From positions 2,240,001 through 2,304,000 of the forward strand of contig CAWAIF010000003.1 of the NCBI GenBank assembly GCA_963782055.1: a stretch of 64,000 nt of DNA. Direction: 5' to 3'. Of this stretch, positions 3,848-21,856 are shown one piece after another. Under the pieces are notes generated by a model that made no database searches, was not told where the DNA came from, and worked only from the letters and a program-made list of their open reading frames with translations. Source of the DNA: an uncultured delta proteobacterium. GTDB taxonomy: Bacteria; Myxococcota_A; Polyangia; Polyangiales; Polyangiaceae. Every line of letters starts with the position of its first letter. The stretch's first letter is position 1. Position numbers and translations under genes: made by a program.

Positions 3848-5242
3848 TCACCCGCCGGACGGGACCTTCGAGGATCGCTTCGCGCGACGTGAACGGCGCG
3901 CTCGGGCAGGCAAGCGCCGTCCGCGTCGCGCCGTACCGCCGTCGGCGAGCAACTTGCCCGTTGGCGTTGGGCCGTGCAGAGGTTCACCCGCCTCCAAAGC
4001 GAGCAGCTTCACAGGCTGGACCTTCCTCCCACCGAGCCCTTGCACGTCGCCAACCAGGGCCGTCATGTTGGCCCTCCCGCGCTCGAGGATCTGCTCCCGC
4101 CGCTTCCACCGCGTCATCATCGCGCGCCTCTCGCTGTCCAGGTCCTCCTGGAGGTCGACGAGCGCGTCGACGATGCCCTCCACGCGACTCCGGAATCCAG
4201 TCCCCGTGATGTACGCGTGCACGGCCGCCATCATCTCGCTCTGGTTCTCACCGGCGCGCCGGGCCAGCGCCACTTCGAGGATCCCCACGCGCAGCGCCGT
4301 GGCGAGCGCCACGGCGAAGGGCCACGCGCACACCCAGACGCCGCGCTCCATGGTGACGTGCTGGACGCCGGCCGGCAGCGCCTGCGTCACGATGATGGCG
4401 GCGACGGCGCCGGCGGCGCGCTGGTCTTGCCGCACCTTGGTCAACCAGCCGGGAGACCAGCTCTGCGTGCGCTTCGACTCCCAGAGGACCAGTCCAGCCA
4501 CGTCACCGCTGGGACCGCGGGCGCCCTGGATCACGTCGGCGCCACGGACGCCCTTTGGCACGTCGCGCAGCTCGTCGCGCGGGAAGGACCGGGCGAGCAG
4601 CTCGCGGAGGACCACCTCCTGCGCTTCGCCCTGAGCCTGCGTGGGTCCGTTCCGGAGGCGGCGCTGCAGCTCGTCGATGGTCTTCTGCAGGCCGGCCTCG
4701 TGCTGGCGGTGCTCCTCGTCACGGAGCGCTTGCTGACTCAACGCAAGGTCCAGCCGCTGCTGCACCACCTTGTCCTGCGCGGCGCGCACGCGACCAATCT
4801 CCTCCGCCACGCGCTGCTCCACGTCGAGCGATTGCCGCTGCGCGCGCTCCGCAAGGAGACGCTCGCGCTTCATCAGGTCGGCCTCCTTGGAGGTGGCGGC
4901 GCGGAGACCGGCGCGCGCCTCCGTCAGCTCGCGCTCCTTGTCGCGGACGCGCGCGTCGGCCTCGCGCTCTGCGCGCTCGCGCGCCGTCTTGGCCTCGCGC
5001 TCCCGGATGGTCTCGGCCTGCGCCGCGACGAGCCGCTCGACGTCGAGGTCGAGGCGCTGCTCTCGCTCCTCGATCTCCCGCGCCAGGCGGCGGAGCTCGG
5101 TCTCCTGCGCGTCGGCGCTCCGGCGTCGATCGGCCAGGGCGGTGTCTGCGGCCGCTCTCGCCTCGGAAGCAACCTGGTCGCGGATCAAATCGGAGAGCTC
5201 GAACTCGGCCGCGCACTTGGGACAACGGATGGGGGTGGACAT
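3848..5242 (-). CDS. DUF2130 family protein (Zn-ribbon, coiled coil, PD-(D/E)XK-like C-terminus)
   Basis: IRCPKC N-terminus, long coiled coil, QGEAQE, VPKGVRGAD and WESKRT..W motifs. Confidence 0.85.
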   Translation of the reverse strand: MSTPIRCPKCAAEFELSDLIRDQVASEARAAADTALADRRRSADAQETELRRLAREIEEREQRLDLDVERLVAAQAETIREREAKTARERAEREADARVRDKERELTEARAGLRAATSKEADLMKRERLLAERAQRQSLDVEQRVAEEIGRVRAAQDKVVQQRLDLALSQQALRDEEHRQHEAGLQKTIDELQRRLRNGPTQAQGEAQEVVLRELLARSFPRDELRDVPKGVRGADVIQGARGPSGDVAGLVLWESKRTQSWSPGWLTKVRQDQRAAGAVAAIIVTQALPAGVQHVTMERGVWVCAWPFAVALATALRVGILEVALARRAGENQSEMMAAVHAYITGTGFRSRVEGIVDALVDLQEDLDSERRAMMTRWKRREQILERGRANMTALVGDVQGLGGRKVQPVKLLALEAGEPLHGPTPTGKLLADGGTARRGRRLPARARRSRRAKRSSKVPSGG

Positions 5243-5307
5243 GGTCCTATCTTTCCGCCGCGTTCCGGCTGCCACGGGCCGGTTGCGGCGTGCTAGCGTG
5301 TGTTTCC

Positions 5308-5338
5308 AATGTGGCAACACCAGTAACGTTGCCACATT
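5308..5338. promoter_or_regulatory. Perfect 11-bp inverted repeat (candidate operator) between divergent DUF2130 and RHH genes
   Basis: AATGTGGCAAC-N9-GTTGCCACATT in a relatively AT-rich intergenic region. Confidence 0.6.
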
Positions 5339-5382
5339 AGTTACACGCGTCAAGTGTGCCTGATGTTGCTACGCGGAGGACC

Positions 5383-5604
5383 ATGAAACCACCGAGGAAA
5401 GTGGCGCGACCAGCCCGCAAGGAGCCCGATGCCAAGGTGCGCCGCAAGCCGGACGTCTCGCGCAAGGAGTCGAGCATCCGCCTCCGATGCACCGACGAGC
5501 AGAAGCGGATTCTCACGGCGGCGGCGGACCGGGAGGGGCTGGACGTCAGCTCGTGGCTGCGGACGCTGGGAATGGCGCGTGCGCGGGAGCTCGGCGTCGC
5601 GTGA
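5383..5604 (+). CDS. Small ribbon-helix-helix (DUF1778/MobC-like) DNA-binding protein
   Basis: GGAGGA RBS; SIRLRCTDEQKRILTAAADREGLDVSSWLR fits the RHH pattern. Confidence 0.75.
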   Translation: MKPPRKVARPARKEPDAKVRRKPDVSRKESSIRLRCTDEQKRILTAAADREGLDVSSWLRTLGMARARELGVA

Positions 5605-5779
5605 CGCTGCGGATCACCGCGGGTCCCGCGGGTCCCCGGCGTACAGGTGTGGAGCGCGCGGGCGGAGACACGCCCATGCTTGACCAGTAGCTGGATGGGG
5701 TCATCGTCCATCCGGACCGGCCGCACCTACGCCCGCCCCACGCCGGGGCAACGCCGAACCAGTCGCCGGTTGGAGTCCT

Positions 5780-7300
5780 ATGTCCTCTCGTCCTCGAGCG
5801 CACGTCACCGGCGATGTCGGTGAACGCCTTTTCCCCACGCTCGTCCCGGAAGAGTTCGTTGTCGAGCGGCAGAACGCCGACTACGGCCTCGACTATGTGG
5901 TGCAGGTCGCGGAGGCCTTCCGCGTGACCAGCACGCGCTTCGGATGCCAGATCAAGACCAGCGCACGCCGCCACGCTCGAAGCCGCGGCGCGCTGCGCGT
6001 GACGATCGAGACGCGGCACCTTGTGGACTGGCTGGACACCGAGACGATGCCCGTGTTCCTCGTGGCTATCGACGCTGCAGACGCGAGGGGCTACTTCGTC
6101 GACGTGGACCACGTTCCGTCCACGCTGCCGGAGGGCTGGCGTGAGCAGCGGACGGTGACGGTTCGCGTGCCGGAGGCGAACGGGGTCAACGGTGGGCCTG
6201 GATTCCGCTCCGCAATTCAAGCAGCGTGGCGTCGCCGCACCAGCCCCGCCGCCGCGGCAGCACGGCGCCAGCGTGAGATCGAGCGGCTCGATCCCCGATT
6301 TTGTGCTGCAGTCAATATCATCGATGGACGCGAGCACGTCGAGCTTCGTGCGAAGGAAGATGTCGAGTGCAGATTCTCCTTCCGTTCACCCGCGGGCGCG
6401 CGAATCTTTCACGGGGACCTCGTGACATTCGCGCCCGGCGAAGCGGCCTTCGCGGGCACTCCGTTGCTGGAGAAGGTCGGACAACTCGGGGCAACGATTC
6501 GGATCGCCGCAGAACAAGCGGCCACCATGTCGCTCGTCGCCACGCGCCCGCTGGGGAATAGCCCTGCGGTGAGCGTCCCGAACCTGCCGGCAACGATCAT
6601 CGCGGCTCCGCTCGCTGTCCAATTCAAGGCGGCGCTCATGGGGAGACTGCTCACGTGGTCGATGGAGCTCCAGCGCAACCCGCCCAGCGTCGAGGCGCGG
6701 ATCGGTCTCGACGTTGGCGCGTGGGGTGGGATGCGCGTTGACGCGCTGCCGTTCCTCGACGAGCTCCTAGCCTTCACTGCCGCGTGCGTAGCCGGCTCGC
6801 CCATCCGCAATGTTCTCCACCTACCGGGCCGGGACGAAGTGCTCACCGAGGCGTTGCCGCCCCGGGACACCATCGAGCGCTTCGCTGAGATCCTCATGCT
6901 CGTGTCGCAGGCCCGCGAGGTGTGCCGTGCGCTTCGGGTGTCAGCCGCGTTGCCGGACGAGCTCACCGAGCTGCACGAGCACCAAATCCGCCGTGCCCAC
7001 GCCTTGCTCACCACCGGCGAGTACCGCGCGCCGGGCAGCGCGTACGACTTCACTGTGACGGCGACACCCATTTGTGCGCGCGACCTTCCGAAGCGCGGGC
7101 CGGTTCGCATGGTGATGGGTGGAGCTAGGAAGCCAATTTCGTTCCTGGATACTGAGATCATGGTGGCGGTTGAGAGCGTCGGCATGACCGACGCCGTGAT
7201 CGTGCCGGGCAGGCGCACTGGTGACGGCCATCGCCGTTTTCGGTTTTCGACGGAGAAGGGCGAGTTCATTCAGCGAGGCACGCCGCTGCCGACGGCATGA
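5780..7300 (+). CDS. DUF4365 (PD-(D/E)XK-like nuclease) domain protein
   Basis: N-terminal GDVGE...DYGLD...FGCQIKT...WL...PVFLV pattern. Confidence 0.75.
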   Translation: MSSRPRAHVTGDVGERLFPTLVPEEFVVERQNADYGLDYVVQVAEAFRVTSTRFGCQIKTSARRHARSRGALRVTIETRHLVDWLDTETMPVFLVAIDAADARGYFVDVDHVPSTLPEGWREQRTVTVRVPEANGVNGGPGFRSAIQAAWRRRTSPAAAAARRQREIERLDPRFCAAVNIIDGREHVELRAKEDVECRFSFRSPAGARIFHGDLVTFAPGEAAFAGTPLLEKVGQLGATIRIAAEQAATMSLVATRPLGNSPAVSVPNLPATIIAAPLAVQFKAALMGRLLTWSMELQRNPPSVEARIGLDVGAWGGMRVDALPFLDELLAFTAACVAGSPIRNVLHLPGRDEVLTEALPPRDTIERFAEILMLVSQAREVCRALRVSAALPDELTELHEHQIRRAHALLTTGEYRAPGSAYDFTVTATPICARDLPKRGPVRMVMGGARKPISFLDTEIMVAVESVGMTDAVIVPGRRTGDGHRRFRFSTEKGEFIQRGTPLPTA

Positions 7301-7389
7301 TGCGCGTGCCGCTGCTTGTGGCGCAGCGCGCCACAGACGCCGGCATCACCGCCTATGCGTCTGCCCAATCCTTTGGTATTACAGCCGTC

Positions 7390-7839
7390 ATGTCCAACCT
7401 GGAGACGCAGCTACAGCAGCTCGCAGCGAACTTCGCCCACAACGTGCTCGCGGCGTTGCGTGGCGCATCCCTCGGCGACATCGCCGGTGAGGCTAGCGGT
7501 CATGCAAGGACGTCGACCGCGGTGACGAGCACGCCCCGCCGGGCGCGCGCTGGCCGACCTGCGAAGGGCACACGCGCTGCGCCACAAGGCGCGGCCACGT
7601 CGCGCAAGACCGGGAAGGGCGGCCGCCTGATGCGCCGCTCGCCGGAGGCGATCACCAAGGAGGTCGACCGCATCGTCGCGCTTCTCAGGGGGAAGAAGGA
7701 CGGCCTGCGGGCCGAGCAGATCCAGGCCGCGCTCAAGCTACGGCGGAAGGAGCTGCCGAAGCCGCTCGCCGAGGGGCTCGCCAAGAAGCGCCTGAAGCGG
7801 AAGGGCGAGAAACGCGCGACCGTGTACTTCGCGACCTGA
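7390..7839 (+). CDS. Basic histone-like/DNA-binding protein
   Basis: Lys/Arg-rich; GGRLMRRSPE..., GLRAEQI..., KGEKRATVYF C-terminus. Confidence 0.7.
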   Translation: MSNLETQLQQLAANFAHNVLAALRGASLGDIAGEASGHARTSTAVTSTPRRARAGRPAKGTRAAPQGAATSRKTGKGGRLMRRSPEAITKEVDRIVALLRGKKDGLRAEQIQAALKLRRKELPKPLAEGLAKKRLKRKGEKRATVYFAT

Positions 7840-8451
7840 GGCGCGGTTCTCCACCCCCCGGCGGCGCGCGCCTCACGGCCCGCACGCGTTCGGTCCCCCG
7901 CAGCTCGACGACGCGAAGCTGTACGGATCGCAGTGCGCCGCGCCGCAGTTGGAGTCGTTGACGCACTGGAGCGCGCAGAACTTGTTGGCCTTGGAGTCGG
8001 TCACGCAGCAGTACTGGCCGGCGCAGGACGTCAGGCCGTTGCATCCGTCGTAGGCCGCGCCGTCGTTCGCCTTGCACACGAACGGCCCGACCGGGTTGCC
8101 CGAGTTGTCGACGTGCGGCGCGCACGCGCCCGACTTGCACTCGGCGCCGGCGGTGCAGCGGCACTCTTGCGTGAACTGGCTCGCGAGCGCACCGTTCGGC
8201 AGGCACGCGCCCTTCCCGCTGCTGAACAGCGTGCAGCATGGCGATCCGGTCGGGCACGCGCTGGAGGTGGTGCAGACCTGCGCGCACTCCTTCTGGATGC
8301 CCGTGTCGACGCAGATGGAGCCCTGGTGATGAGCGACAATTATTCCTGCAGGTCGACGACAACTATTCCTGCAGGTCGGTCGCCGTCCTGACGGCACGTG
8401 CGAGGCTGCGGTCCGGTGCTGCGGGCCGGCCCCGGGGCTCCAGGAGCTCCG

Positions 8452-9939
8452 ATGGTCACGGACGAGCAGGTCAGGCTGTTGAGGAAGAAGATGTCCGAAG
8501 GAAAGACGATCGCGTTTGCCGCGGCGGCAGCGGGGCTCTGCGAGCGCAGCGCCTACACCTGGAAGCAGGGGGCGCTGCCGAGCGAGAGCAAGGAGCCACG
8601 GGCTTGGCGCACGCGCACCGACCCGTTCGCGGGGGTCTGGGACTCCGAGATCACCCCGCTGCTCGCATCCGACGAGCACGGTGTGCTGGAGGGGACGACG
8701 GTGCTGGCGGAGCTGCGCCGACGCCACGGTGAGCAGTACGGCCCCTCGCTCCTGCGCACGTTGCAGCGGCGCATGCACGAGTGGCGTGCCCTGCACGGCC
8801 CGGGCAAGGAGGTGATGTTCGAGCAGCGGCACGAGGCCGGACGCGAGGGCTCGTTCGACTTCACCGACGCCTCCGCGCTCGGCGTCACCATCGCCGGCGA
8901 GGCGTTCCCGCACCTGTTCTTCCAGCTCGTGCTGAGCTTCAGCAAGTGGCGCTGGGTCGGGCTCGCGTTCTCCGAGACCTTCGAAGCGCTCGTGCGCGGG
9001 CTCCAGGGCGCGCTCTGGGAGCTCGGCGGCGTCCCGCGCGTCTGGCGCAGCGACAACCTCTCGGCCGCGACGCACCAGATCCCCGGCGGGGGACGTGAGC
9101 TCAATCGCCGCTTCGCCGACGTCCTCGACCACTACGGCGCGAAGTCGACGCGGATCGAGCCCGGGGAGTCTCACCAAAACGGCGTCGCCGAGAAGGCCCA
9201 CGACGTGCTGAAGTCGGCGCTGCGCCAGGAGCTGGTTGTGCGCGGGAGCCGCGACTTCCCCTCGGTCGCGGCGTACATGGAGCTCGTCGAGAAGGTCCGC
9301 GGCGGGATCAACGACGGCAAGTCCGCGGCGCTGCTGGCCGAGGAGCGAGAGCGCCTTCTCCCGCTCCCGCGCACGCGGCTGCCCGAGTACACGAAGTACA
9401 CCGCGACGGTGCGGCAGTGGAGCACGATCCACTTCGCTCACCGTGTCTACTCGGTGCCCTCGCGGCTCATCGGCTGCGAGGTCGAGGTCCGGCAGTATCC
9501 CGACCTCGTCGAGGTCTACTACCGCGACCGCACCAAGCCGACCGCCACGATGCCGCGCATCCGCGGAGACCGCTACCACCAGGTCGACTACCGGCACGTC
9601 ATCTGGTCGCTGGTGCGCAAGCCGGGCGCGTTCGCGCGCTACCGTTTCCGCGAGGAGCTGTTCCCCTCGCTCGTCTTCCGTCGCGCTTACGACGCGCTCG
9701 TCGAGGCGCATGGCGACCGCGCCGACGTCGAGTACGTGCGCATCCTTCACCTCGCGGCGAGCACGATGCAGGCCGACGTCGAGAAGGTCCTGCAGGCCCT
9801 GCTCGCGCGCGGCGAGAGGCCGGACTTCATCACGGTCAAGGCGCTCGCCGCGCCCGAAAGCCCCACGATCCCCGTCGTGCACATCCCGCCGCCAGACCTC
9901 TCCGTCTACGACCGTCTGATCGGGGGCGAAGCATCATGA
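8452..9939 (+). CDS. istA: IS21 transposase
   Basis: FDFT, SDNLSAA and NGVAE DDE motifs; YSVPSRLIG. Confidence 0.93.
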   Translation: MVTDEQVRLLRKKMSEGKTIAFAAAAAGLCERSAYTWKQGALPSESKEPRAWRTRTDPFAGVWDSEITPLLASDEHGVLEGTTVLAELRRRHGEQYGPSLLRTLQRRMHEWRALHGPGKEVMFEQRHEAGREGSFDFTDASALGVTIAGEAFPHLFFQLVLSFSKWRWVGLAFSETFEALVRGLQGALWELGGVPRVWRSDNLSAATHQIPGGGRELNRRFADVLDHYGAKSTRIEPGESHQNGVAEKAHDVLKSALRQELVVRGSRDFPSVAAYMELVEKVRGGINDGKSAALLAEERERLLPLPRTRLPEYTKYTATVRQWSTIHFAHRVYSVPSRLIGCEVEVRQYPDLVEVYYRDRTKPTATMPRIRGDRYHQVDYRHVIWSLVRKPGAFARYRFREELFPSLVFRRAYDALVEAHGDRADVEYVRILHLAASTMQADVEKVLQALLARGERPDFITVKALAAPESPTIPVVHIPPPDLSVYDRLIGGEAS

Positions 9940-10715
9940 CCGCCTTCACGCTGGACATGGGCACCCGCCTGCGCGAGCTGTGCGCGGGCTTCAGGCTTCC
10001 GACCTTCGCGACCGAGGTGGTCCGTCGCCTCACCGACGCGGGTCACGAGGCCGCACTGCCGACCCTGCTCGAGGTCCTCGAGGCCGAGGCCGACGAGCGC
10101 GGACAGCGTCGTACCGGGCGGCTCCTCAAGGCCTCGCGCTTGCCCCCCGGCAAGACGCTCGACACACTCGACCGCGCCCGGCTCCCGCGCGCCGTCCTCG
10201 CGAAACTCGACGAGCTCGCCACCGGCGCCTTCCTCGACCGCGCGCACAACGTCCTCTGCTTCGGCCTGCCCGGACGCGGCAAGACTCACGCCGCAGCCGC
10301 GCTCGGCCACGCGCTCGCGGGGCGAGGCCACTCCGTCCTCTTCGCGCCCACCTTCCGCCTCGTGCAGGAGCTGCTCGCAGCCAAGCGCGACCTCGACCTG
10401 CCGCGTGCCCTGCGCCGCCTCGATGCCTTCGAGCTCTTGATCCTCGACGACATCGGCTACGTCCAGCAGAGCGCCGACGAGGTCGAGGTTCTCTTCACCT
10501 TGATGGCCGAGCGCTACGAGCGTCGCTCCATCCTCATCACGAGCAACCTCGTCTTCGGCGAGTGGGATCGGATCTTCAAGAATCCCATGACCACCGCCGC
10601 CGCCATCGATCGCCTCGTGCACCACTCGGCGATCCTGGAATTCTCAGGACGCAGCAAGCGTGCCGACGACGCCGAGTCCCGCTCGAAGAAGGGACCCTCC
10701 GAGGCGACCACGTGA
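9936..10715 (+). CDS. istB: IS21 helper ATPase
   Basis: Walker A GLPGRGKT, LLILDDIGY, AAIDRLVHH; ATGA overlap with istA. Confidence 0.95.
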   Translation: MTAFTLDMGTRLRELCAGFRLPTFATEVVRRLTDAGHEAALPTLLEVLEAEADERGQRRTGRLLKASRLPPGKTLDTLDRARLPRAVLAKLDELATGAFLDRAHNVLCFGLPGRGKTHAAAALGHALAGRGHSVLFAPTFRLVQELLAAKRDLDLPRALRRLDAFELLILDDIGYVQQSADEVEVLFTLMAERYERRSILITSNLVFGEWDRIFKNPMTTAAAIDRLVHHSAILEFSGRSKRADDAESRSKKGPSEATT

Positions 10716-11142
10716 CGGCAACTACCGAGGGCCAGCGACAACTACGCGACGACGACAACTACACGAGGCACGAACCATGAACCTGGCGACCACCTGCAAG
10801 AATAGTTGTCGCCACCATGCAGGGATAGTTGACGTCCATCACCCTGGTCGCAGCACTGGCTCGGGCACTGCCGGTCCGCCGGGCAGGTGGACCCGTCCGC
10901 CGAGGCGTCGGAGGCGTCCGCGGCGTCGTCCTGACCCGCGTCATCGACCGCGCCGTCCGGCCCGCCGCCGTCGGTCTGGGCGAGCGGCGCCGACGAGCAC
11001 GCGACGCCGACTCCCGTGACCACGATGAGAAACCCGAAGCGTGTGCGCATGCCATCCTCCTCCGCTGCGATCCCATGCCGCGGCGGTAACACGACATATC
11101 GCACCGTGTTTCACGAGGGTCAAGAGACCCGACTCTCACCGG

Positions 11143-11409
11143 GTGAGAGACACCAAGCGCGTCATGGCCGACATCGGCCGGCGGATCTGCGAGGAGCGGC
11201 ACGCGGCGGACTGCACGCAGGAGCAGCTGGCGGAGAAGCTGCGCGTCGATGCGCGCACGGTCCAGCGGCTTGAGCGCGGGGTGAACCTGACCCTGCCCCG
11301 GCTGATCCAGATCGCATCGGTGCTCCGCGTACCGATCGAGGCGTTCTTCCGACGGCCGGAGAGCAGGCGTGCTCCGGCACCGGGGCGGCCGCGGCGCACC
11401 GCCCGGTGA
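11143..11409 (+). CDS. XRE-family helix-turn-helix regulator
   Basis: TQEQLAEKLRVDARTVQRLERG-NLTL. The palindrome CTCTCACC-G-GGTGAGAG (11133-11149) overlaps the probable GTG start; alternative ATG at 11164. Confidence 0.85.
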   Translation: MRDTKRVMADIGRRICEERHAADCTQEQLAEKLRVDARTVQRLERGVNLTLPRLIQIASVLRVPIEAFFRRPESRRAPAPGRPRRTAR

Positions 11410-11485
11410 CTTGGCGGGCAAGGACCGCGATTGTCGTCGTCGTCAGGATTGCAGTCGGGGTCCGCATCGGCGATCATGCCGCCAC

Positions 11486-13033
11486 GTGACCACCGCATTG
11501 GCGCTGCTAAGGAGAGGTTACTTCCCGCGGGAGCTTCCTCCGCCCTTCACCACCGAGGGGTTCGCGGTGTTTGCGACCAACCCTGCCAATCGCGGGGCCC
11601 TGCCGGCACCCGGCAGGTGGAGTAGGTGTGTTCAACACAACCTCGCTCGGCCGGGCGGTCTCCGGCGTCCGCTCAAGATTCCAAATCCGAGGCATCACCT
11701 ACTTCTCGCAGAAGAGATCGAGGGTCAGTGGCCCGCCCTGCGCACGCACTTTCAACAGGCACGGCTGTCTGCCAGTAAGCCCATGGTCAGGCGAACGGTT
11801 GTGGATCGCGCGTTGGTTCCGCGTCTTTCGCTGCGCGCACTTACCCGACTCAGGGCGCGTCGTTTCGTCGGAGCCCGGTACTTTCTCCGGACGGACATCA
11901 ACCAGTTTTATCCATCGCTGTATACCCACAGCATTCCGTGGGCTCTGCATGGCAAGGCCTATGCGAAGGCACACATCAACCAGACACCTGGTGACGCCAT
12001 CGATCGTGCACTTCGTAACCAGCAGGACGGTCAGACGGTCGGGATTCCCATCGGCCCCGACTGCTCCCTGGTGGTTGCGGAAGTGGTGCTGACGGCGGTC
12101 GATGCGGCCCTTGCGCCGCGAGGACTTCGAGGCTTTCGGCATGTCGACAACTATGAGTTCGGCTTTCCAACGCTCGCGGACGCCGAGGCGGCCCTGACCG
12201 ACCTTCAGGGCCTTCTGGCGCAGTACGAGCTGAGTCTCAACCCGCGAAAGACGAGGATCGTCGAAGGTCCTATTCCCTTCGATGAGCAGTGGGCAATCGA
12301 GCTCGGCCACTTTCCGGTTCGCCGTGGGACGCCAACGCAGGAGCTCAACGACGCTGCGGCGTTCTTCAGTCGCGCGTTCCAGCTGGCGAAGGAGCATCCG
12401 CAGCAGGCTGTCTTGCGATTTGCGCTAATTGCGGCACAGCGCTGGATGTTCTTACATGACGGATGGTGGACATTCCAGGGGCTGTTGTTCAATGCGATGA
12501 CCGCGGATCCCGCGACGATCCCCGTTGCGGTCGTGCTATTGGAGCGCCACGTGGTGGCAGGACGCGTCGTGAACAGGACGCCCGCTCGTACGACCATCGA
12601 GTCCACAATCGCGCGACACGCGCCGCTCGGACACGGGAGCGAGGTCGCGTGGGCCCTTTGGATGGCGATACAGTTCGACATTGACCTATCGGCAGACACG
12701 GCGACGGTCGTCTCACAAATGGAGGACGACATCGTGGCGCTTCTCGCGCTGGACGCCAGTGTGCGCGGCAGATTTTCGCCCGGCGCGCTTGACACTGCGG
12801 CATGGGCTGCGCTCGCAGCGCTACCGAACGCGCTCGAAGACGAACACTGGCTGCTGGCATACGAGGCGAATCGCAAGGGGTGGTTGCAATGCGCTGCGGT
12901 AGCCACAGACGGGTTCTTCAGCCAGCTGGAGCAGCACCGCATCAGCTTCTACGACCCCGCCCGCCGTCTCACGAGCTTCACGGGGCCCGCAGCGGCGGTC
13001 CCAGGTGGCGGCTTGGGGCCGGGTTACGCGTGA
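11486..13033 (+). CDS. UG/Abi (DRT-like) reverse transcriptase with helical C-terminal region; motif C reads HVDN
   Basis: GYFPRELPPPF, IPNP, TDINQFYPSLYTHSIPWA, QTVGIPIGP and FRHVDNY motifs; visibly less GC3-biased than neighbours. Start uncertain (GTG 11486). Confidence 0.88.
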   Translation: MTTALALLRRGYFPRELPPPFTTEGFAVFATNPANRGALPAPGRWSRCVQHNLARPGGLRRPLKIPNPRHHLLLAEEIEGQWPALRTHFQQARLSASKPMVRRTVVDRALVPRLSLRALTRLRARRFVGARYFLRTDINQFYPSLYTHSIPWALHGKAYAKAHINQTPGDAIDRALRNQQDGQTVGIPIGPDCSLVVAEVVLTAVDAALAPRGLRGFRHVDNYEFGFPTLADAEAALTDLQGLLAQYELSLNPRKTRIVEGPIPFDEQWAIELGHFPVRRGTPTQELNDAAAFFSRAFQLAKEHPQQAVLRFALIAAQRWMFLHDGWWTFQGLLFNAMTADPATIPVAVVLLERHVVAGRVVNRTPARTTIESTIARHAPLGHGSEVAWALWMAIQFDIDLSADTATVVSQMEDDIVALLALDASVRGRFSPGALDTAAWAALAALPNALEDEHWLLAYEANRKGWLQCAAVATDGFFSQLEQHRISFYDPARRLTSFTGPAAAVPGGGLGPGYA

Positions 13034-13079
13034 TCGGGCTCATGCATGCTCGGCACCGGAGGGCTGGGTTGTCGTCGCG

Positions 13080-16000
13080 ATGACCCCCTCCACCCGCTCC
13101 GTGCTCGGCACGCTCAGCAAGCTCCGGCTCGCCGAGCTCGCCCGCGCGCTCTCCGTGCCGCTCGGGCCGTCCGATACGCGCGATCGCCAGCTGGAGGCGC
13201 TCCTCCGTCACGGGATCCACCTGACCGACGTGCTCCCCCGCCTCGGGCGCGACGAGCTTCGCGAGGCGTGCGCCGCGCACGACCTGCCCACCGACGTGCG
13301 CGCCCGCGCCGAGCTCGCCCGCCGGCTGCTCGAGGCGTACGCGCCCGGCCAGAGCTCTCCGCCGCTCCCCGGAGAAGGCCCCGCGGAGCCGGCGCGCCTC
13401 GCGCGCGGCGCCGTCGTGCTCGCCCGGCATCGCCGCTGGCTCGTCACCGACGTCGAGCCGGGCGCCGACCATGACGACATGACCCGCGTGTCCCTGGTGT
13501 GCCTGGACGACGACGCGCAGGGCCGCACCGCGGAGGTGCTCTGGGAGCTGGAGCTCGGCGCGCGCGTCCTCGCCCCGGAGGCGTCAGGCCTGGGCGCGCC
13601 CTCCCGACTCGACGATCCGGAGGCGCTCGCCGCGTACCTGCACGCGCTCGCCTGGAACACCGTGACCGCGACGGACGGCCGCCTCTTCCAGTCACCCTTC
13701 CGCGCGGGGATCCACCTGAAGGACTACCAGCTCGCGCCGCTCATGAAGGCGCTGGAGTTGCCGCGCGCCAACCTCTTCATCGCCGACGACGTCGGCCTGG
13801 GCAAGACCATCGAGGCGGGGCTGATCATCCAGGAGCTGCTGCTCCGCCAGCGCATCGACTTCGTGCTGGTCGTGTGTCCCGCCGCGGTGACCACGCAGTG
13901 GAAGGCGGAGATGGAAGCGCGCTTTGGCCTCCGCTTCGAGATCTACGATCGCGGCTTCGTCGCGCGCCGGCGGCAGGAGCGCGGCTTCGGCGTCAACCCG
14001 TGGGCCACGCACTCGCGCTTCATCGTCTCCTACCAGACCTTCCGGCGGCCGGAGCATCGCGAGGCGCTCCGCGCGCTCTTCCCCGGGGACGGGCGGCGCC
14101 TGCGCTCCATGCTGCTGCTCGACGAGGCGCACACCGTCGCGCCCGCCTCCGGCTCCCGCTGGCCCGCCGACTCCGAGATCACCCGCGCTGTGCGCGATCT
14201 GGCGCCGCGCTTCGAGCACCGCCTCTTCCTCTCCGCCACCCCGCACAACGGCCACTCCAACAGCTTCGCCGCGCTCCTCGAGCTGCTCGATCCGCAGCGG
14301 TTCCTGCGCGGAGAGCGGGTGACCGATCCGGCGCGCCTCGTGCCCGTGATGGTGCGGCGGCTCAAGACCGATCTGCCCAAGGGCGACTTCCCCACGCGCA
14401 CCGTGCAGCCCATCGGCGTGGCGGGGACGTTCGAGGAGCAGCTCGCCATGCTCCTCGCCGAGTACACCGCGCTCGCCGCGCCGTCGAAGGCCAGGGGCCG
14501 CCTCGCCTTCGTCACCCTGCAAAAGCGACTGCTCTCCAGCGTCTACGCGTTTGCCAGGACGCTGGAGAAGCACGCCGAGCACCGGGCCGCCGGCGCGGGC
14601 GGCGTCGCGCCGGCAGGCGCCTCGACAGAAGACGACGAGGACGCGCCGGCGGAGGCAGCGGACGCCCGCGAAGAAGCCGACGTCGCGCACGAATCGGCGA
14701 GCCTGGCCGCGCCCACCGGCCACGTCGCCGAGCTGCTCGCGCGCATGCTCGATCTCGCGAGCGCCCACCGCCTGGATCCCGACGCGAAGGTACGCGCGCT
14801 GGTCGCCTGGATGCAGAGGAACCAGTGCCCTGGCGTCGCGCTCGGCGGCGGCTCGCGCGCGAGGTGGACCGACGAGCGGCTCCTCATCTTCACCGAGTAC
14901 GGCCACACCAAGGACTACCTCCTCAAGCTGCTGCGCACCGCCGTGGCCGGCACCGACCGCGACGACGAGCGCATCGGCGTCTTCGACGGCGGCATGAGCG
15001 ACGACGACCGCCGCGCGGTGAGCGCCGCCTTCACCGGCAATCCCGCCGCGTACCCGCTGCGCGTGCTCGTGGCGACCGACGCCGCGCGCGAGGGCGTCAA
15101 CCTGCAGGGCAAGTGCCGGATGCTGGTGCACTTCGACGTGCCCTGGAACCCCGCGCGCATGGAGCAGCGCAACGGCCGCATCGACCGCATGAAGGGCGCG
15201 AAGGAGGTGACGTGCGCCTACTTCGTCTACGCCAACCGCCGCGAGGACAAGGTCCTTCACACCCTGGTGGAGAAGACGGAGCGCATCCGCACCGAGCTCG
15301 GCTCCCTCGGCGCCGTGGTCGCGACGCGCATGGCGGAGCGCCTCCAGAAGGAAGGCATCACCGACAAGACGGGCGCCGCGCTGGAGGAGGACGAGGCGCA
15401 GGAGCAGCTCTTCGCCGCGCCCGTCGCCAACGAGCTCGAGCGCGTGCGCAAGGGACGCGACGTGCAGCTGGAGATCGCCGAGGCGCGCAAGCGGCTGGAC
15501 GAGTCGCGACGTCGCCTGCTGGTGCGCCCGGAGCTGCTGCGCGAGGTCGTCGACGTGGGCCTGCGCCTCGCGGGCGCGGAGCCCCTCGCGCGCGCGCCGT
15601 CGCCCAAGGAGGAGCCGGAGCTCGCGTGCTTCACCGTCCCGCCCATGCCGCCGGCGTGGGAGGCGACGCTCGACACGCTCCGTCCGCCGCGGGAGAAGGA
15701 CGAGGCGCCGTGGGAGTGGCGCAAGCGCCCGCTGCTGCGCGTGACCTTCACCCCGCCGGAGGAGCTGGCCACCCCCGTCGTGCACCTGCACCTCTCCCAT
15801 CCCTTCGTGGAGCGCCTCCTCGGTCGCTTCCGCGCGCAGGGCTTCTCCGCGCACGATCTCTCCCGCGTCACCGTGCTCCGCGATCCGTACGCCAGCCGCG
15901 TGCGCGTGGTGGGCATCGGGCGCCTCTCCCTGTTCGGCGCGTCGGCGGCGCGCCTGCACGAGGAGCTGGTGCGCGTCGCCGGCGTGTGGAACGAGGCGAC

Positions 16001-16502
16001 CGACGCGGTGGAGGTCTTCGCCCCCGACTCGCGCGACGAGCAGGAGGCGCTCGCCGATCTGGACAAGATCCTCGCCGAGCCCCGCGCGCCGCGGCACGTG
16101 GAGGCCTCGCGCGTGCTGCGCGCCGCGCCCGCGCTCTTCGGCAGCCTGTGGCGGGAGATCGCCAAGGACGCCGACGCCCAGGGCCAGCGCGCGCGGGAGC
16201 TCCTCCGCCGGCGCGGCGAGGACGAGGCGGCGGCGCTGCGGGCGATCCTCGCGCGGCAGCTCGATCACGCGACCGAGCTGCTCGAGGGGCAGCAGCTCAC
16301 CCTCGGCTTCGACGAGAAGGCGCTCAGCCCGTACGAGAAGGCGCAGCTCGATCGCGACCGGGAGTGGCTCCGGAGGAGGCGGGAGGCGATCCGGGCGGAG
16401 CGGGAGACGGAGCCCGCGGCGATCGAGGGGAGCTACCGGGTGGAGCTGGAGAGGAGCGAGCCGGTGGCCCTGGTGGTGATGTGGCCGGAGACGGCGGGGT
16501 AG
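13080..16502 (+). CDS. drmD: DISARM DrmD-like SNF2 helicase
   Basis: FQSPFRAGI...YQL, IADDVGLGKTIEAG, LDEAH, LSATPHNG, ATDAAREGVNLQ and QRNGRIDR motifs. Confidence 0.85.
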   Translation: MTPSTRSVLGTLSKLRLAELARALSVPLGPSDTRDRQLEALLRHGIHLTDVLPRLGRDELREACAAHDLPTDVRARAELARRLLEAYAPGQSSPPLPGEGPAEPARLARGAVVLARHRRWLVTDVEPGADHDDMTRVSLVCLDDDAQGRTAEVLWELELGARVLAPEASGLGAPSRLDDPEALAAYLHALAWNTVTATDGRLFQSPFRAGIHLKDYQLAPLMKALELPRANLFIADDVGLGKTIEAGLIIQELLLRQRIDFVLVVCPAAVTTQWKAEMEARFGLRFEIYDRGFVARRRQERGFGVNPWATHSRFIVSYQTFRRPEHREALRALFPGDGRRLRSMLLLDEAHTVAPASGSRWPADSEITRAVRDLAPRFEHRLFLSATPHNGHSNSFAALLELLDPQRFLRGERVTDPARLVPVMVRRLKTDLPKGDFPTRTVQPIGVAGTFEEQLAMLLAEYTALAAPSKARGRLAFVTLQKRLLSSVYAFARTLEKHAEHRAAGAGGVAPAGASTEDDEDAPAEAADAREEADVAHESASLAAPTGHVAELLARMLDLASAHRLDPDAKVRALVAWMQRNQCPGVALGGGSRARWTDERLLIFTEYGHTKDYLLKLLRTAVAGTDRDDERIGVFDGGMSDDDRRAVSAAFTGNPAAYPLRVLVATDAAREGVNLQGKCRMLVHFDVPWNPARMEQRNGRIDRMKGAKEVTCAYFVYANRREDKVLHTLVEKTERIRTELGSLGAVVATRMAERLQKEGITDKTGAALEEDEAQEQLFAAPVANELERVRKGRDVQLEIAEARKRLDESRRRLLVRPELLREVVDVGLRLAGAEPLARAPSPKEEPELACFTVPPMPPAWEATLDTLRPPREKDEAPWEWRKRPLLRVTFTPPEELATPVVHLHLSHPFVERLLGRFRAQGFSAHDLSRVTVLRDPYASRVRVVGIGRLSLFGASAARLHEELVRVAGVWNEATDAVEVFAPDSRDEQEALADLDKILAEPRAPRHVEASRVLRAAPALFGSLWREIAKDADAQGQRARELLRRRGEDEAAALRAILARQLDHATELLEGQQLTLGFDEKALSPYEKAQLDRDREWLRRRREAIRAERETEPAAIEGSYRVELERSEPVALVVMWPETAG

Positions 16503-16964
16503 CTAGAGCCCCCTCGACTCTGCGGCGCGCAGCGCCGCGGCCGTCAGTCACAAAACGCACAGCCCCGACACCGCGTCCGGCGCCGGGGCCCATGCCCATT
16601 AAAATTTGCTCGCCGTGGTACTTGCCGTTTTGCGTTTCGTTGCTTTGGCTTGATAAATGGCGTTGCGGATGTGTTCGGGTGTGCGTCCTGAGGGTTGGAG
16701 TGCAGCGGGCCCCCCGCTGCCTAACAACGCAGTCAAGGCCTCAAGCATGGCAGCATCCGCCGCGCCGCGCAAGGGGAGATTCTGCCCGAAAAGCGGGGCC
16801 CTCTCCCGCCGGGCTGTTCGGTACGACGAAACGCTTCGGGGCACCACTGACGACGCGGCACTGATCAGCACCCAGGGCGGCAAATTGTGCCCTCGACCTT
16901 CAACCCACGGCTCGCAAGGGCGGCCAACCAACCGGTCGTCCTTCTGCCACGTCCCGCAGCGCAC

Positions 16965-19243
16965 CAGAGTTCGGCATGGCCTCTCACCCGATCTGGGCTC
17001 GAAGCCTGAGCCGGCGGCGTCTTGAATCGCCGGGCAGGGTGAGCTTCTGGCGGTTGATGGCGGCGAGCAGCTCGCCAAAGGCGGCGTGCTCCAGCGCAGT
17101 GCCGGCGGGCGCCAGGTCGACGGCGATGGTGCGTAGTCCGACGCGTACTCGGCCAGGCGCGGCAAGCAGGTTGGCCAGCGTCTTCTTCGCCTCCGTCGGG
17201 CGGGGCAGGCGCGAGCCCAGCAACGCAGCGAGGTCAGCCTCGGCGTTCGCGCACGCGATTCTCAGCGTGTCGAGCACGGTCTTGCTCCCGCTCTCGTGAC
17301 GTCGGAGCTTTCCGGCGAGCTCGGTGTCGCACAGCGGCGCGTGCTTGGGCGTCGTCGGCCGCTGCTCTTCGAGCTGGCGCTGCAACGCGATGGCATCCTC
17401 GAGGTCGCGCTCGATTCGCGCCCGTCGCCGGTCCTCGTCGGGGAGCTGCGCGAGCAACCGCCGCGCGTCGCCCTCGCGGATGCATGCGACGCGCATCGCG
17501 CGATCGAGTCGGCGCCGCGCCGGGTTGGGCACGATCGTGTCAGGGAGGTACGCGATGGTCTCGCGCCGGTCGAGCTGGTTGATGCCCCAGCGCTCCACCC
17601 CGTGCTTGAAGCCGTTCTCCTGCCGCCAGCGACCACGCATGATCTCGATGAGGCGCGTGGCGTCGCAGGTGGAGACGGCGAGCAGATTGACCTGGCGGCC
17701 GTCGGCCTCCCGCACCGCGATGCGACGCACACGGCCACGTCCGGCGCCCAGGTTGATCTGCGACTCGACGTAGCGCACGTCGTCGTCCTCGCCGACGTGT
17801 GCGCTCTCGGTGAAGGCGGACTCGGCCAGCTTGGGGAAGGGACGTCGCTCGTAGGTCACCAGCTCGAAGCCCGCGTCGCGCAGCCGCGCCATCGACTCCG
17901 CGAAGGAGCCCGCGCGATCGAACGCGAGCAGCACGCGCTCGCCGTCGCCCACCACACGACGAAGTACTCGTGCGATCGGCGCGAGCCACTGCGTGAGCGA
18001 GTCGTGGGATGCGACGTCGACGCGGAAGAGCGGCCGGCCGTCCTCATCGTGCACGTAGTAGTCCGTGATTCCGGGGCAGACACGCTTGTCCTGCATGCGC
18101 CAGCCTCGCCGGATGACCTGCTTGCCCGTGTACGGCCGGAGGTGGTTGTCGACGTAGTAGACGCCGCGCTCTGCGGCGCGCGGCGCGCGCAGGTACCGAC
18201 CGAGCATGGCGACGTGAAACCGCACGGCGCCGAGCTGCTCGGCGAATCTCGCCATCGTCCGGCGCACGCTCCGCGGCGACGGGCACGCGGTGGCCCGCAG
18301 CAACACGGCCGACGTCGGCGTCGCAATCCGTCGTACGCCTTCGACGCAGCGCTGCCCGAGCGTGAGTGAGATGGCCGCCGCATCGAGCGCGACGCGCGTC
18401 GTGTGACCTTCCATTCGCCCCGCAGTTGCGCGCGCCGCCGCGTCGTAGAGCCCGAGCTTCGCCAGCGTCGCGAGCATCAGCCACGTGCCCGCGTGCTGCA
18501 CGTACGCGCTGCTCCGCACGACCTCGTCTGCGACCGGCTCCGGCGGCGGCGGCTTGGGTCGCACGGCCATGCGCTTGATGCCCGGCAGCGGCAGCGTCTG
18601 CTCCCGCTCCGCCGCCGCCTCGTCAGCCGCACGCTTCGCACGCTCCGCTTCGCGCTTCTTGCTCCACGCCGTGTGCACGTGCCCGACGGTGCTGTAGCCG
18701 AGACCGCGGACCTTCTTGTGCGCCGCCTCGATCGTCAGCCCGGCGTCGAAGAGCGCCTCGAGCGCCGCGCGCTTCTTGGGCGTCACCTTCGGCGGCCGAC
18801 CGTTGCGCGCCGGCGTCACGAGCGCCGCCATCCCCTCCCGCTCGTACTTGCGCCGAAGCTCCCGCATCCGCTCGCTCGAGATGCCGAACGCCTTCGCCAT
18901 CCTCCCGAGATGCGTCCTCGGCTCTGCCGCGAGCGTCACAATCAGCACGTTGCGGCTCGTCACGTCATCGCTCGTGAACATCCCGACGAGCACCCCGCCC
19001 ACGAACACCTCACGACGGTCGCCGTGGTCCACCACGCACGCCCTGTCGGAGAACCACCGGATGTGGCCCTGCTGGCCATCGTCGGGTAGTGTCTTCTGCC
19101 CCATCGCCTCCGTCTTCATCGCCTCTGTCAGACGGCGAAGCCAGACGAAAATTCACCGCCCCTTCACAGAGAAGCCGGAACCCTCCAAGTCGCGGAAATC
19201 AGCCGCCACGGGCGATCATGCAGTCAGGTCGTGCCGAACTCTG
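16965..19243 (-). mobile_element. Insertion sequence of uncertain family
   Basis: Terminal IRs CAGAGTTCGGCATGGCCT and AGGTCGTGCCGAACTCTG, each flanked by GCAC (16961-16964 and 19244-19247). Confidence 0.85.
16984..19119 (-). CDS. Putative DDE transposase with N-terminal HTH
   Basis: YYVDNH.RPYTG, AFDRAG and RWRQENGFK motifs; fills the space between the IRs. Confidence 0.85.
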   Translation of the reverse strand: MKTEAMGQKTLPDDGQQGHIRWFSDRACVVDHGDRREVFVGGVLVGMFTSDDVTSRNVLIVTLAAEPRTHLGRMAKAFGISSERMRELRRKYEREGMAALVTPARNGRPPKVTPKKRAALEALFDAGLTIEAAHKKVRGLGYSTVGHVHTAWSKKREAERAKRAADEAAAEREQTLPLPGIKRMAVRPKPPPPEPVADEVVRSSAYVQHAGTWLMLATLAKLGLYDAAARATAGRMEGHTTRVALDAAAISLTLGQRCVEGVRRIATPTSAVLLRATACPSPRSVRRTMARFAEQLGAVRFHVAMLGRYLRAPRAAERGVYYVDNHLRPYTGKQVIRRGWRMQDKRVCPGITDYYVHDEDGRPLFRVDVASHDSLTQWLAPIARVLRRVVGDGERVLLAFDRAGSFAESMARLRDAGFELVTYERRPFPKLAESAFTESAHVGEDDDVRYVESQINLGAGRGRVRRIAVREADGRQVNLLAVSTCDATRLIEIMRGRWRQENGFKHGVERWGINQLDRRETIAYLPDTIVPNPARRRLDRAMRVACIREGDARRLLAQLPDEDRRRARIERDLEDAIALQRQLEEQRPTTPKHAPLCDTELAGKLRRHESGSKTVLDTLRIACANAEADLAALLGSRLPRPTEAKKTLANLLAAPGRVRVGLRTIAVDLAPAGTALEHAAFGELLAAINRQKLTLPGDSRRRRLRLRAQIG

Positions 19244-19612
19244 GCACTCCGGGCACACCGGCACCGCCTCCCGCGCGAAGAGCGCGGCGAGGTACGGCTC
19301 GAGGTCGGCCATGGTGGCGAGGGTGGAGCGGCTGGACTTGATGGGCGCGCGGCGGTCCACCGCGACCGTGGCGGCGACCGGCTCGAGCGAGTCGATGGGC
19401 GGTCGCTCCAGGCGCTCCAGGAACTGCCGCGCGTACGGGGAGAAGCTCTCGACGAAGCGCCGCTGCCCCTCGGCGTAGAGCGTGTCCATCGCGAGCGACG
19501 ACTTGCCCGCGCCGCTCGGCCCGGTGACGGCGACGAGCTCGCCGGCCCGGAGGTCCAGGTCGACGGAGCGGAGGTTGTGCGTGCGGGCGCCGCGGAGGCG
19601 GATGGGGTGCAT
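19244..19612 (-). pseudogene. uvrA: uvrA 5' fragment (copy 1, about 123 codons)
   Basis: [14 protein letters not shown]...[36 protein letters not shown]...CPEC, cut off at the IS end. Confidence 0.9.
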
Positions 19613-20029
19613 CGGGGGAGGGGGGCAGGCAGTATGCGCATCCGGGGGGCGGATGGCGAGGGGGGGGGTGGCCCCTCCGGGCGCCATGCTCGGGCTCGTG
19701 CTCGCCCGCGCGCAGGCCCACGGTGAGGAGCGGGGGCAGCGCGGTGGGCCTGCACGCGGGCTTGCGCGCGAGCCCTGCGCGTGGCGCCCCTCCCCTCGAT
19801 GTCGCGCTCGCGCGCGCCATCGGGGAGGCTGATCGGCTGGACGCGGCGGACCTCGGCGCGGGAACTGAGTGGGCGGGGCCCTCCTCCGATTTCGTCGAAC
19901 GCGTGTGGGCGTCGCGAGGGGGCTTCGTGCGGTGCCACGCCGGGCGGGCGGAAGGATCGCGCCAGCCTTCCTGGTGCGCGTGCGGGATGCGTCACTGCGG
20001 CTGTCACGCTCCTTCCGCCATGGGAGGGC

Positions 20030-20398
20030 ATGGCACCGCACGAAGCCCCCTCGCTCTTTCTCCTTCACACGTACGCGCGTTCGATGCGCACGGGACCCAC
20101 GCGGTCGGAGGCGATCATGTGGCGGGCGCTGCGGGGGCGGCGGGTTTGTGGGGTGAAGTTCCGGCGGCAGCACGTGCTCGCGGGGAACTACATCGTGGAC
20201 TTCGTGGCGCTGAGCGAGCGGCTGATCGTGGAGGTGGACGGCGGGGTGCACCGGGAGCCGGAGCGGGCGGCGGCGGATGCGGCGCGGCAGCGGGTGCTGG
20301 AGGGGCTCGGGTACCGGGTGATGCGGGTGGCGGCGGAGCTGGTGGAGCGAGACGTGGGCGCCGCGCTCGCCCGGGTGCGCGCGGCGCTGGGGCGGTGA
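20030..20398 (+). CDS. DUF559 (Vsr-like) endonuclease domain protein, copy 1
   Basis: ARSMR..PTRSE..W, KFRRQH..GNYIVDF...[10 protein letters not shown]...D..R...L...GYRV; GGAGG RBS. Confidence 0.9.
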
Positions 20399-20496
20399 CG
20401 CCGGCGGTGGATCTCGTGGACAGGCCCGCCGATATTGGCGGCGTGAGCCGCCGATATTGGCGAGGGGAGGTGGCGGGGGACCGCTGCCGCGGGCCT

Positions 20497-20706
20497 CGCA
20501 CTTTCGCGGTGGACGTGCAGAGGTGCCCGGAGTGCGAGGGCCGCATGAAGCTCGTGGCGATGGTGCAGGAGCCGCGGGGGATCCGGAGGTTCCTCGAGGG
20601 GCTCGGCGCGCCGCACGAGGTCCCGCCGCGCGCGCCGGCTCGCGCTCCTCCTTACTACCGCAGCGCCGTCATCCGCCGCATCGCCGGCGCCCTCGTCGCC
20701 GCCTGA
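20497..20706 (+). pseudogene. IS91/ISCR-family transposase C-terminal fragment
   Basis: [30 protein letters not shown]...PP..PARAPP tail. Confidence 0.8.
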
Positions 20707-21059
20707 CGCTCGCACGGGGCAGGGTCCGGTGCGCGCGCGGGGCGAAAATCGCTCCGTGAGCGTCCCCATCGAGACCGCAAGGGCCACGATGGGGGACGTT
20801 CGCGCCCACCCCCGAGCCGCCGCGAGCCGGCTCCAGACGTGTGGGCCCCATGGAAAACCGCGCTTGAATCGCCTGCTCCTGGTGGCGGCGAGGGTCGCGA
20901 CGACGACGAGGTCGGCGGTCCGGACGTCCCCGGCGCGGTGCGCGTAGAACTCGTAGACCGCCGTCTTGTGGTTGGCGGAGGTGGTGTTGTCGTCGGCGAG
21001 CGCCGCGTTGGCGCCTCCTCCCGCTCCCACTCTCGGTCCCGGTCGGCAGGGCTGTCCCG

Positions 21060-21482
21060 TCAGTCGCCGTCGGCGTCGGTGGTGGCATCGGAGCCGGCGT
21101 CGGCGGCGGCATCCGGTCCCGCGTCCGCGCCCGCGTCGACGCCGGAGCACAGGTCGTTCGTCACCTGGACGGACGAGAACCCCATGCTCGGGCACTGCAC
21201 CGTGACGGGCGCGCCGCCGTCGCACGCGCAGAAGGCGACCTCGCTGAAGCAAGCGTTCTCCGGGTCGTTCTGGCAGGTGGCCTGCGCGTTCGGGGCGCAG
21301 TCTCCGATCTGGAACTCGCAGGTCTGGCCGGGCGCGCAGTCGGTGATGGACGAGCACGGCGTGCCGACGGCCGGCGCCGCCTCGACCGCGGCGTCGTGGT
21401 TGTCGAACTGGCTGCCCGGGTCGTCACAGGCCGTGACGGCGACGCCGAGGACCGCAAGAAGCTGGAGGGAGCGGATGATCAT
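21060..21482 (-). CDS. Small Cys-rich lipoprotein
   Basis: MIIRSLQLLAVLGVAVTAC lipobox; ATGA overlap with the upstream gene. Confidence 0.8.
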   Translation of the reverse strand: MIIRSLQLLAVLGVAVTACDDPGSQFDNHDAAVEAAPAVGTPCSSITDCAPGQTCEFQIGDCAPNAQATCQNDPENACFSEVAFCACDGGAPVTVQCPSMGFSSVQVTNDLCSGVDAGADAGPDAAADAGSDATTDADGD

Positions 21483-21856
21483 CTCTGGATCGCCGCACAT
21501 CCTGAGTACCTAGGGTCCCCGTATTCGCAGACCCCGTCGCGATGACAGCAGCCCCAAGCGTGAATACCCTCGTTGTAGTGATCATAGAGACATTGAGACG
21601 GCTCAGGACAATAGATGGCACTCAAGCGCGGCGTACTCCCAGTCACCGTTCCAGCGTCGTCGCACCCGTCGACCAGGCCACGAGTCACGTCACACCAGTC
21701 CAGCACGCGCCCCGCGTCCCCTGCAGCCTCGGCGTCGGCCGGGCCGCCGTCAGGCCCGATCCCGGCAGCGGCGTCGGCGCTCCCCACGTCGATCCGGCCC
21801 CCGCAGCCGATCGCGCAGACCGTCACCGCGACCGCCACTGCTCTTCTCAGGGGCAT
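21479..21856 (-). CDS. Small Cys-rich lipoprotein, paralog 2
   Basis: MPLRRAVAVAVTVCAIGCGG; WCDVTRGLVDGCDDAG shared with 22045-22413. Confidence 0.8.
   Translation of the reverse strand: MPLRRAVAVAVTVCAIGCGGRIDVGSADAAAGIGPDGGPADAEAAGDAGRVLDWCDVTRGLVDGCDDAGTVTGSTPRLSAIYCPEPSQCLYDHYNEGIHAWGCCHRDGVCEYGDPRYSGCAAIQR

Follow-up and report, generated by a model that had tools for sequence, protein, structure and literature searches.

The window analysed here, a 64,000-nucleotide stretch of an uncultured delta proteobacterium of the Polyangiaceae (NCBI GenBank assembly GCA_963782055.1, contig CAWAIF010000003.1, positions 2,240,001 to 2,304,000 of the forward strand), carries on its plus strand, at 11486..13033, a gene classed from PADLOC and PDB matches as a class-1 UG/Abi defence reverse transcriptase (RT) of the DRT6 (UG12) family, 515 aa long with a GTG start. 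Motif C of the RT (12140..12151, plus strand, CAT GTC GAC AAC) reads HVDN, H219-V220-D221-N222, in the in-frame context ...GFRHVDNYEF..., and aligns with YVDD of DRT6 and YIDD of DRT4. The original prediction, made from the letters of the window, had placed these codons inside an intact 515-aa open reading frame (ORF) with an intact motif A, and the sequence confirmed this. The Asn of HVDN is confined to this assembly and is either an allele produced very recently by a G>A change or a wrong base at 12149 in the assembly; it does not mark a lineage.

The RT frame opens at 11369 and ends with the stop at 13033; it has no internal stops or frameshifts. GTG 11486 is the start supported by homologs; relatives share the N-terminus VTTA..LL.RGYFPRELPPPF, the frame of the closest relative has the same N-terminus, and the PADLOC profile match starts five residues after this codon. 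The public record of the protein (P0003) holds 410 aa only (80% of the query) from an internal start, and homologs back the 515-aa form. The best PADLOC family was Drt6 (E 7.2e-156, 518 bits, profile 6-487 of 511), with the match spanning protein residues 45-538 in the 554-aa frame, followed by Drt4 (1.5e-141) and, further down, by RT_UG30, AbiK (1.4e-40) and AbiP2 (8.6e-27). The NCBIfam Drt4 equivalog NF041749 scored 239.1 bits, under its cut-off of 450, so that the protein does not qualify as DRT4 (UG15). Pfam gave a weak RVT_1 match only, and Rfam had no family close to the RT gene. Among solved structures, the best match was the maltose-binding protein (MBP)-fused DRT6 chain 9wy8 (E 2.8e-72), which aligned as a single stretch (query 6-504 vs. 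chain 404-905) including the RT and the C-terminal alpha-repeat region, with gfrHVDNyef of the window RT opposite gfrYVDDfyf of DRT6. Other PDB matches were DRT4 chains (approximately 4e-27) and AbiK and Abi-P2-type chains (approximately 1e-11). On these profile and chain alignments, the window RT is classed as a DRT6 (UG12) class-1 UG/Abi reverse transcriptase, with a predicted C-terminal alpha-helical repeat domain after the RT domain, like that of solved DRT6.

Residue equivalence was counted along the alignment to DRT4 chain 21ou_A, and the numbering was checked against the named residues Asn124, Tyr125, Asp149 and Ile150. By this count, D149, D240, D241, Y238, H160 and D192 of DRT4 would correspond to D137, D221, N222, H219, H148 and D173 of the window RT. 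The motif A catalytic Asp, D137 (TDINQFY; 11894..11896, plus strand), is intact and aligns with the DRT4 metal ligand Asp149. H148 (11927-11929) and D173 (12002-12004), both intact and together spanning 11927..12004 of the plus strand, are the counterparts of H160/D192, the RNase 'HD' pair of DRT4. The G.PIGPD.S motif and K255 are present as well, in columns that are invariant or nearly so across the 451 homologs described below. The catalytic triad is incomplete in the window RT, as D137 and D221 are kept and 222 is Asn. An intact triad is a functional trait of active DRT6 members and no criterion of descent.

To place the motif in its family, a closest set of 119 database proteins (45-75% identity, own record excluded) was compared, 118 of which cover motif position 4. 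Position 222 is Asp in 118/118. When 50%-identity cluster representatives were added to these 119 (267 homologs), position 222 was D in 258, E in 4, N in 3, Y in 1 and G in 1, and position 219 was Y in 177, H in 29, F in 26 and W in 7, with others making up the remainder. His, the second commonest state at motif position 1, reads in these alignments as a normal family variant and is probably ancestral in the window's lineage. The nearest relatives carry HVDD (P0012 and P0005) and YVDD (P0004), and all 13 distinct related genes read as DNA encode DD. Because H is common in the family and the nearest relatives are HVDD, HVDN differs from HVDD by one derived change, D to N. The claim of the original prediction that two changes had accumulated in one motif is thus reduced to a single one.

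A larger set of 451 homologs included two extra searches seeded with Asn-bearing homologs and is Asn-enriched by design; the unbiased rate is that of the 267-homolog set, 3/267. Across these 451, position 222 was D in 434, N in 9, E in 6, Y in 1 and G in 1, and position 219 was Y in 247, F in 62, H in 42 and A in 37. Four catalytic positions were invariant or nearly so: D137 and H148 in 451/451, D173 and D221 in 450/451. The window RT deviates at 3 of the 115 columns with at least 90% conservation, a middle rank among 120 sequences, and at 1/65 family-conserved columns in the larger homolog set. By this measure, the protein shows no other sign of decay.

The base in question was compared with public sequence runs. 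Run X1, a public soil-metagenome run, contains 55% of sampled RT-gene words, and one of its contigs (746 nt, 11536-12281, word depth 2.9) differs from the window at a single position, 12149..12149 of the plus strand, where the window has A (Asn) and the contig has G (GAC, Asp). Two more X1 pieces of the RT gene (229 and 151 nt) are identical to the window. Over 20 kb around the RT, X1 pieces of at least 99% identity show further listed differences at 9180, 9269 and 18940 only, and the X1 bases there are those found in the genome's own second copies of both insertion sequences (ISs) of the locus. Seven X1 pieces with at least 99% identity total 2,598 nt, and 12149 is the sole listed difference without a paralogue explanation. 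As its other listed differences match the genome's own IS paralogues, the X1 organism is essentially the same strain. It is very unlikely that a random error in the contig would have restored the very codon that is invariant in the family; hence the G allele is real. Runs X2 and X3, from the same study as X1, gave mostly short partial matches over the 20 kb, with no depth at 12149 and no listed differences. Among the data sets listed for the stretch, none was of RNA. The proposal that HVDN marks a lineage with altered function does not agree with Asp in all of the closest homologs and GAC in the same strain.

The sequence context of 12149 was counted in the assembly, where the 9-mer in its G form, GTCGACGAC, occurs 891 times and in its A form, GTCGACAAC, 111 times. 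A systematic base-calling error at this context was rejected as unlikely, since the G-form 9-mer is abundant. In the G form, 12149 is the G of a CpG, and G>A there would be the commonest kind of spontaneous change. Elsewhere in the chromosome, an element of approximately 2.04 kb with an RT-like ORF has eight nearly identical copies; seven further copies, compared with the reference copy as a gauge of assembly error, had 0-4 mismatches and 0-1 gaps, but these differences may be real.

Lesions occur naturally in the RT genes of relatives. One gene at 46% identity, present in a contig of a metagenome-assembled genome and in a metagenome contig (L005 and L029), is interrupted by TAA precisely where motif C has its Tyr codon (L005:8670-8672, L029:6670-6672), in a frame that is otherwise open. 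The closest DNA relative (L016 and L017, approximately 75% amino-acid identity) has a 113-nt insertion after residue 265, at about 5219-5331, with a frame change and a stop. In two other loci (L025 and L031), RT matches are split over different frames.

Asn at 222 also occurs far from the window's lineage. Seven Asn proteins (P0372, P0374, P0376, P0380, P0384; P0128, P0313) read AIDN, in which Ala takes the place of the stacking Tyr and Asn that of the second Asp. The five-member AIDN clade has a support of 100 and 75-85% pairwise identity, and the AIDN pair P0128/P0313 is 89% identical. Six of the seven have 1-3 deviations in the 65 conserved columns (family median 2), and AIDN proteins share rare residues (e.g., W119, Y126 and F174 in query numbering) that are without counterpart in the window RT. 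In a FastTree phylogeny of 440 full-length rows, the Asn state at 222 needs five changes. A single origin of the seven AIDN proteins was rejected by the approximately unbiased (AU) test (p 0.004), although this group was defined with the first tree already known; the AIDN pattern could come from convergence, recombination or a tree artefact. As far as these alignments indicate, Asn at 222 can be stably kept in lineages at 38-44% identity to the window's.

Downstream of the RT lies a complete DISARM-type SNF2 helicase, DrmD, identified by NCBIfam and PADLOC (13080..16502, plus strand, first ATG 13080, ORF open from 13005). It scored 1000.8 bits against NCBIfam DISARM_DrmD NF038317 (cut-off 610, profile 3-1020 of 1021) and 1.3e-292 against PADLOC DrmD; about 105 extra N-terminal residues precede the profile match. 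RT and DrmD are co-directional, with 46 nt between the RT stop (13033) and the first ATG of DrmD (13080). No DISARM partner profile matched among the 14 flanking ORFs scanned (3848-22144). DUF1998, the DrmB domain, was found at just two places in the genome, C3:3339394 and C3:4309603, which lie some 1.1 and 2.1 Mb off; a second, weaker DrmD-like match adjoins the DUF1998 ORF at C3:4.31 Mb. The DrmD locus thus lacks the set of DrmA, DrmB, DrmC and methylase in one place that defines a DISARM system. By tblastn (E 1e-5), a DrmD homolog was found in 0/23 loci around RT relatives, which represent 17 distinct genes and of which at least 13 have 3 kb or more downstream. A functional RT-DrmD pair was rejected on this count, and the window helicase is an orphan DrmD, unrelated to the RT and without a partner. 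With DrmD as the neighbour compared, the RT has the make-up of a system of one gene, with neither a conserved partner gene nor a non-coding RNA.

The RT-DrmD pair is bracketed by two ISs. An IS21-family element (istA/istB; 8326..10841, plus strand; Pfam rve, Mu-transpos_C_2, IstB_IS21) ends 645 bp upstream of the RT start and has a second copy, 99.56% identical, at C3:6767339-6769854. The other element (16955..19244, minus strand, transposase 16984-19119; Pfam Transposase_29, HTH) starts 453 bp downstream of DrmD and has a 99.65% copy at C3:2231168-2233457, some 9 kb ahead of the window. Repeated DNA continues at 19244-20870. The RT was found in 0/40 related genomes, six of them of the same genus, and is a stand-alone, accessory defence gene set in a rearranged, IS-flanked island. 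The search for near-identical plasmid DNA gave a 325-nt, 76% match inside DrmD only, and the search of phage records by protein (tblastn) gave distant Abi-P2-like and Listeria phage RTs only (24-31% identity). Upstream of the RT, the minus strand encodes a DUF2130 protein at 3848-5353, and 5780-7300 encodes a DUF4365 protein that weakly matches the PADLOC profile of an Argonaute-associated restriction endonuclease (9.2e-5); the upstream genes at 3848-7839, these two included, may be further island content. Further along the window, Group II intron RNA domains lie at 32442-32762 and 33508-33720 (Rfam RF02001, 114 bits; RF01998, 43 bits), followed by an RT-like ORF.

DRT6 is described, in the available part of PMC12783706, as an oligomeric, single-gene abortive-infection system in which DNA is made template-independently and covalently joined to protein. 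The same part of that source reports that the T5 DNA-binding protein ORF55 activates DRT6, that DRT6 is toxic in sbcB-knockout cells, which lack the host 3'-5' exonuclease SbcB, and that ORF55-dependent toxicity is gone in D223A/D224A. For DRT6 enzymes, changes of the motif-C aspartates remove synthesis, toxicity and defence alike. Protein-primed, template-independent synthesis of single-stranded DNA and anti-phage activity are known for the Sphingopyxis DRT6 (UG12), and a mutation of the UG12 RT catalytic domain abolishes immunity (PMC12783706 and PMC9226505, in the parts available). Toxicity arising from a host without ExoI was considered for the present organism and set aside; Exonuc_X-T_C was not found in the 97%-complete genome, but the control detected it in only 1/14 reference genomes, so that lacking it is the rule and says little.

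The effect of Asn222 was judged by analogy. In DRT4, two metals are bound by Asp149, Asp240 and Asp241, Tyr238 stacks on the 3' base, and D240A/D241A loses both synthesis and defence (available part of PMC12783706); the RNase site is formed from H160 and D192 (available part of the 2026 preprint 10.64898/2026.10.21.760695). In the RT of human immunodeficiency virus 1 (HIV-1), D186N has been used as a mutant disrupting metal binding at the polymerase site (PMC1976467), and D186N together with D185N abolishes polymerase activity (PMC5498913). The expectation in the original prediction that D-to-N should cripple polymerisation gains support from the role of DRT4 Asp241 as a metal ligand and from HIV-1 RT D186N, as far as these excerpts describe them. 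By this analogy, the change at 222 is likely to disable or strongly weaken metal-dependent DNA synthesis of the window RT. Non-segmented negative-strand RNA virus polymerases naturally have an Asp-Asn motif C, and Asn there is not always lethal to catalysis.

The best explanation, held at about even confidence, is that a G>A change arose recently and spontaneously in a DRT6 defence gene, giving a loss-of-function or strongly hypomorphic allele. The starting point would be a DRT6 RT in which a single base, A for G at 12149, turned HVDD into HVDN, as seen only in this assembly. Asn222 would remove one of three carboxylate metal ligands and leave the polymerase dead or strongly hypomorphic; protein-primed single-stranded DNA (ssDNA) synthesis would be lost, and with it abortive-infection defence. 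The fold would stay, and so would the His/Asp pair matching the DRT4 RNase site. The allele may be neutral, as part of a horizontally acquired, decaying island between ISs, or it may be favoured, as relief from the cost of constitutive ssDNA synthesis. The original prediction's inactivation of a toxic enzyme survives in this form, as a spontaneous loss-of-function allele, and nothing shows targeting. It had also named, as findings that would speak against it, reads with GAC at this codon, or an HVDN unique to this genome with signs of relaxed selection; these largely came about, as GAC was found in X1 and the Asn is unique, but no other decay was seen. Several points weigh against a spontaneous loss of function. 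No evidence of selection for the HVDN allele was found. The base A at 12149 may reflect an error in the consensus, the reads of the window assembly lying outside the comparison; and the X1 contig, at its depth of 2.9, may share a sample or population with the assembly, so that it is no independent proof of two strains. The DRT4 and DRT6 mutants reported are double D-to-A changes, and for the second Asp of class-1 UG/Abi RTs the available parts of the sources describe no D-to-N change on its own. Position 222 is the catalytic position least constrained in the family (434/451 vs. at least 450/451 elsewhere), and Asn is stable in two AIDN clades with otherwise normal conservation, so that Asn need not mean a dead protein.

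Among the other explanations, an assembly or consensus error, in which the organism's true codon is GAC (HVDD) and base 12149 was miscalled as A, is possible though doubtful. The sole other sequence found for the strain, the X1 contig, reads G, and X1 matches the genome down to paralogue-specific IS variants and may share its population or sample; one substitution, with nothing else changed in the 2,598 nt and against the unbroken Asp of the closest homologs, is also what a miscall would leave. Set against this are the lack of any systematic G>A conversion at the context, the low prior for a random error on exactly base 12149, the low depth of the X1 contig itself, and the true loss-of-function alleles of such RT genes that exist in relatives. 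A real and still functional variant, in which Asn222 is tolerated with reduced or altered metal use (e.g., with short protein-linked oligonucleotides as the sole products) and HVDN still defends, perhaps at lower self-toxicity, is unlikely. It would fit the non-Asp residues at 222 in 9/267 homologs found with the window protein, the Asn conserved in the AIDN clade and AIDN pair with usual conservation elsewhere, and the intact remainder of the window protein, H148 and D173 included; but every other member of the window's own clade has Asp and the Asn arose in a single recent step, the rare residues common to AIDN proteins are not in the window protein, function is lost in the Asp mutants of DRT4, DRT6 and UG12 described in the available parts of the sources, and HIV-1 RT D186N loses metal binding. 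A broader version of this idea, which we regard as speculative and rather improbable, would take Asn at the second motif-C position as a recurrent, selectable state of DRT6-like RTs, with at least five origins in 440 sequences and conservation in two AIDN clades. HVDN would then be a fresh instance beside its HVDD parent, the two forming a matched pair from nature, with the defence polymerase tuned down to short primer-linked products or altered metal use, with self-toxicity lowered and sensing and RNase-type effector functions kept. A non-catalytic RT serving as a sensor or scaffold for the adjacent SNF2 helicase, also put forward in the original prediction, is highly improbable. The two genes are co-directional and close together, but the helicase is a full-length DISARM DrmD, a component of another system, and accompanies none of the 23 related RT loci; DRT6 acts as a single gene in the available part of its description, and the Asn is private and recent.

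The gene of this soil bacterium belongs to a familiar defence type, DRT6, and carries a point change of its own. It looks like an ordinary recent knock-out or a base error in the assembly and no new kind of enzyme, and has modest practical value. When a non-canonical catalytic motif turns up in one assembly only, near-identical sequences should be consulted before it is given a biological meaning. If the A allele is real, HVDN and HVDD form a natural isogenic pair for the dependence of DRT6 immunity and toxicity on the second motif-C Asp. The family survey is of more interest than the window: of the catalytic positions, that of the second Asp is the least constrained, and in two AIDN clades the Asn is apparently kept by constraint.

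Compared with known systems, the window RT shares with HIV-1 RT D186N the same substitution at the same motif-C position, but HIV RT is distant and template-dependent, and its change was engineered and not natural. Asn at the second motif-C position is common to the window RT and the AIDN proteins; unlike the window RT, the AIDN subclades (approximately 40-44% identity) have Ala at position 1, and their Asn is clade-conserved where the window's is private. AbiK and Abi-P2, which are protein-primed and template-independent, are class-1 UG/Abi relatives whose structures (PDB 7r06, 7r08) match over the RT core; similarity is confined to that core, and the families are different. DRT4 (UG15) of E. 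coli (PDB 21ou, 9vdo and others) has the same fold class and catalytic layout, His/Asp pair included, but the window RT matches its solved chains at approximately E 4e-27 only, and the DRT4 priming residue Tyr125 falls opposite Leu when counted on the alignment. The closest counterpart is DRT6 (UG12) of Sphingopyxis sp. (PDB 9wy8). Unlike it, the window RT has HVDN in place of YVDD, lies beside an orphan DrmD between two insertion sequences and is known from sequence alone; the two are alike over their full length, in length class and in being apparently stand-alone, and their motif C numbering is nearly the same (D223/D224 in Sphingopyxis DRT6 vs. 221/222 in the window RT).

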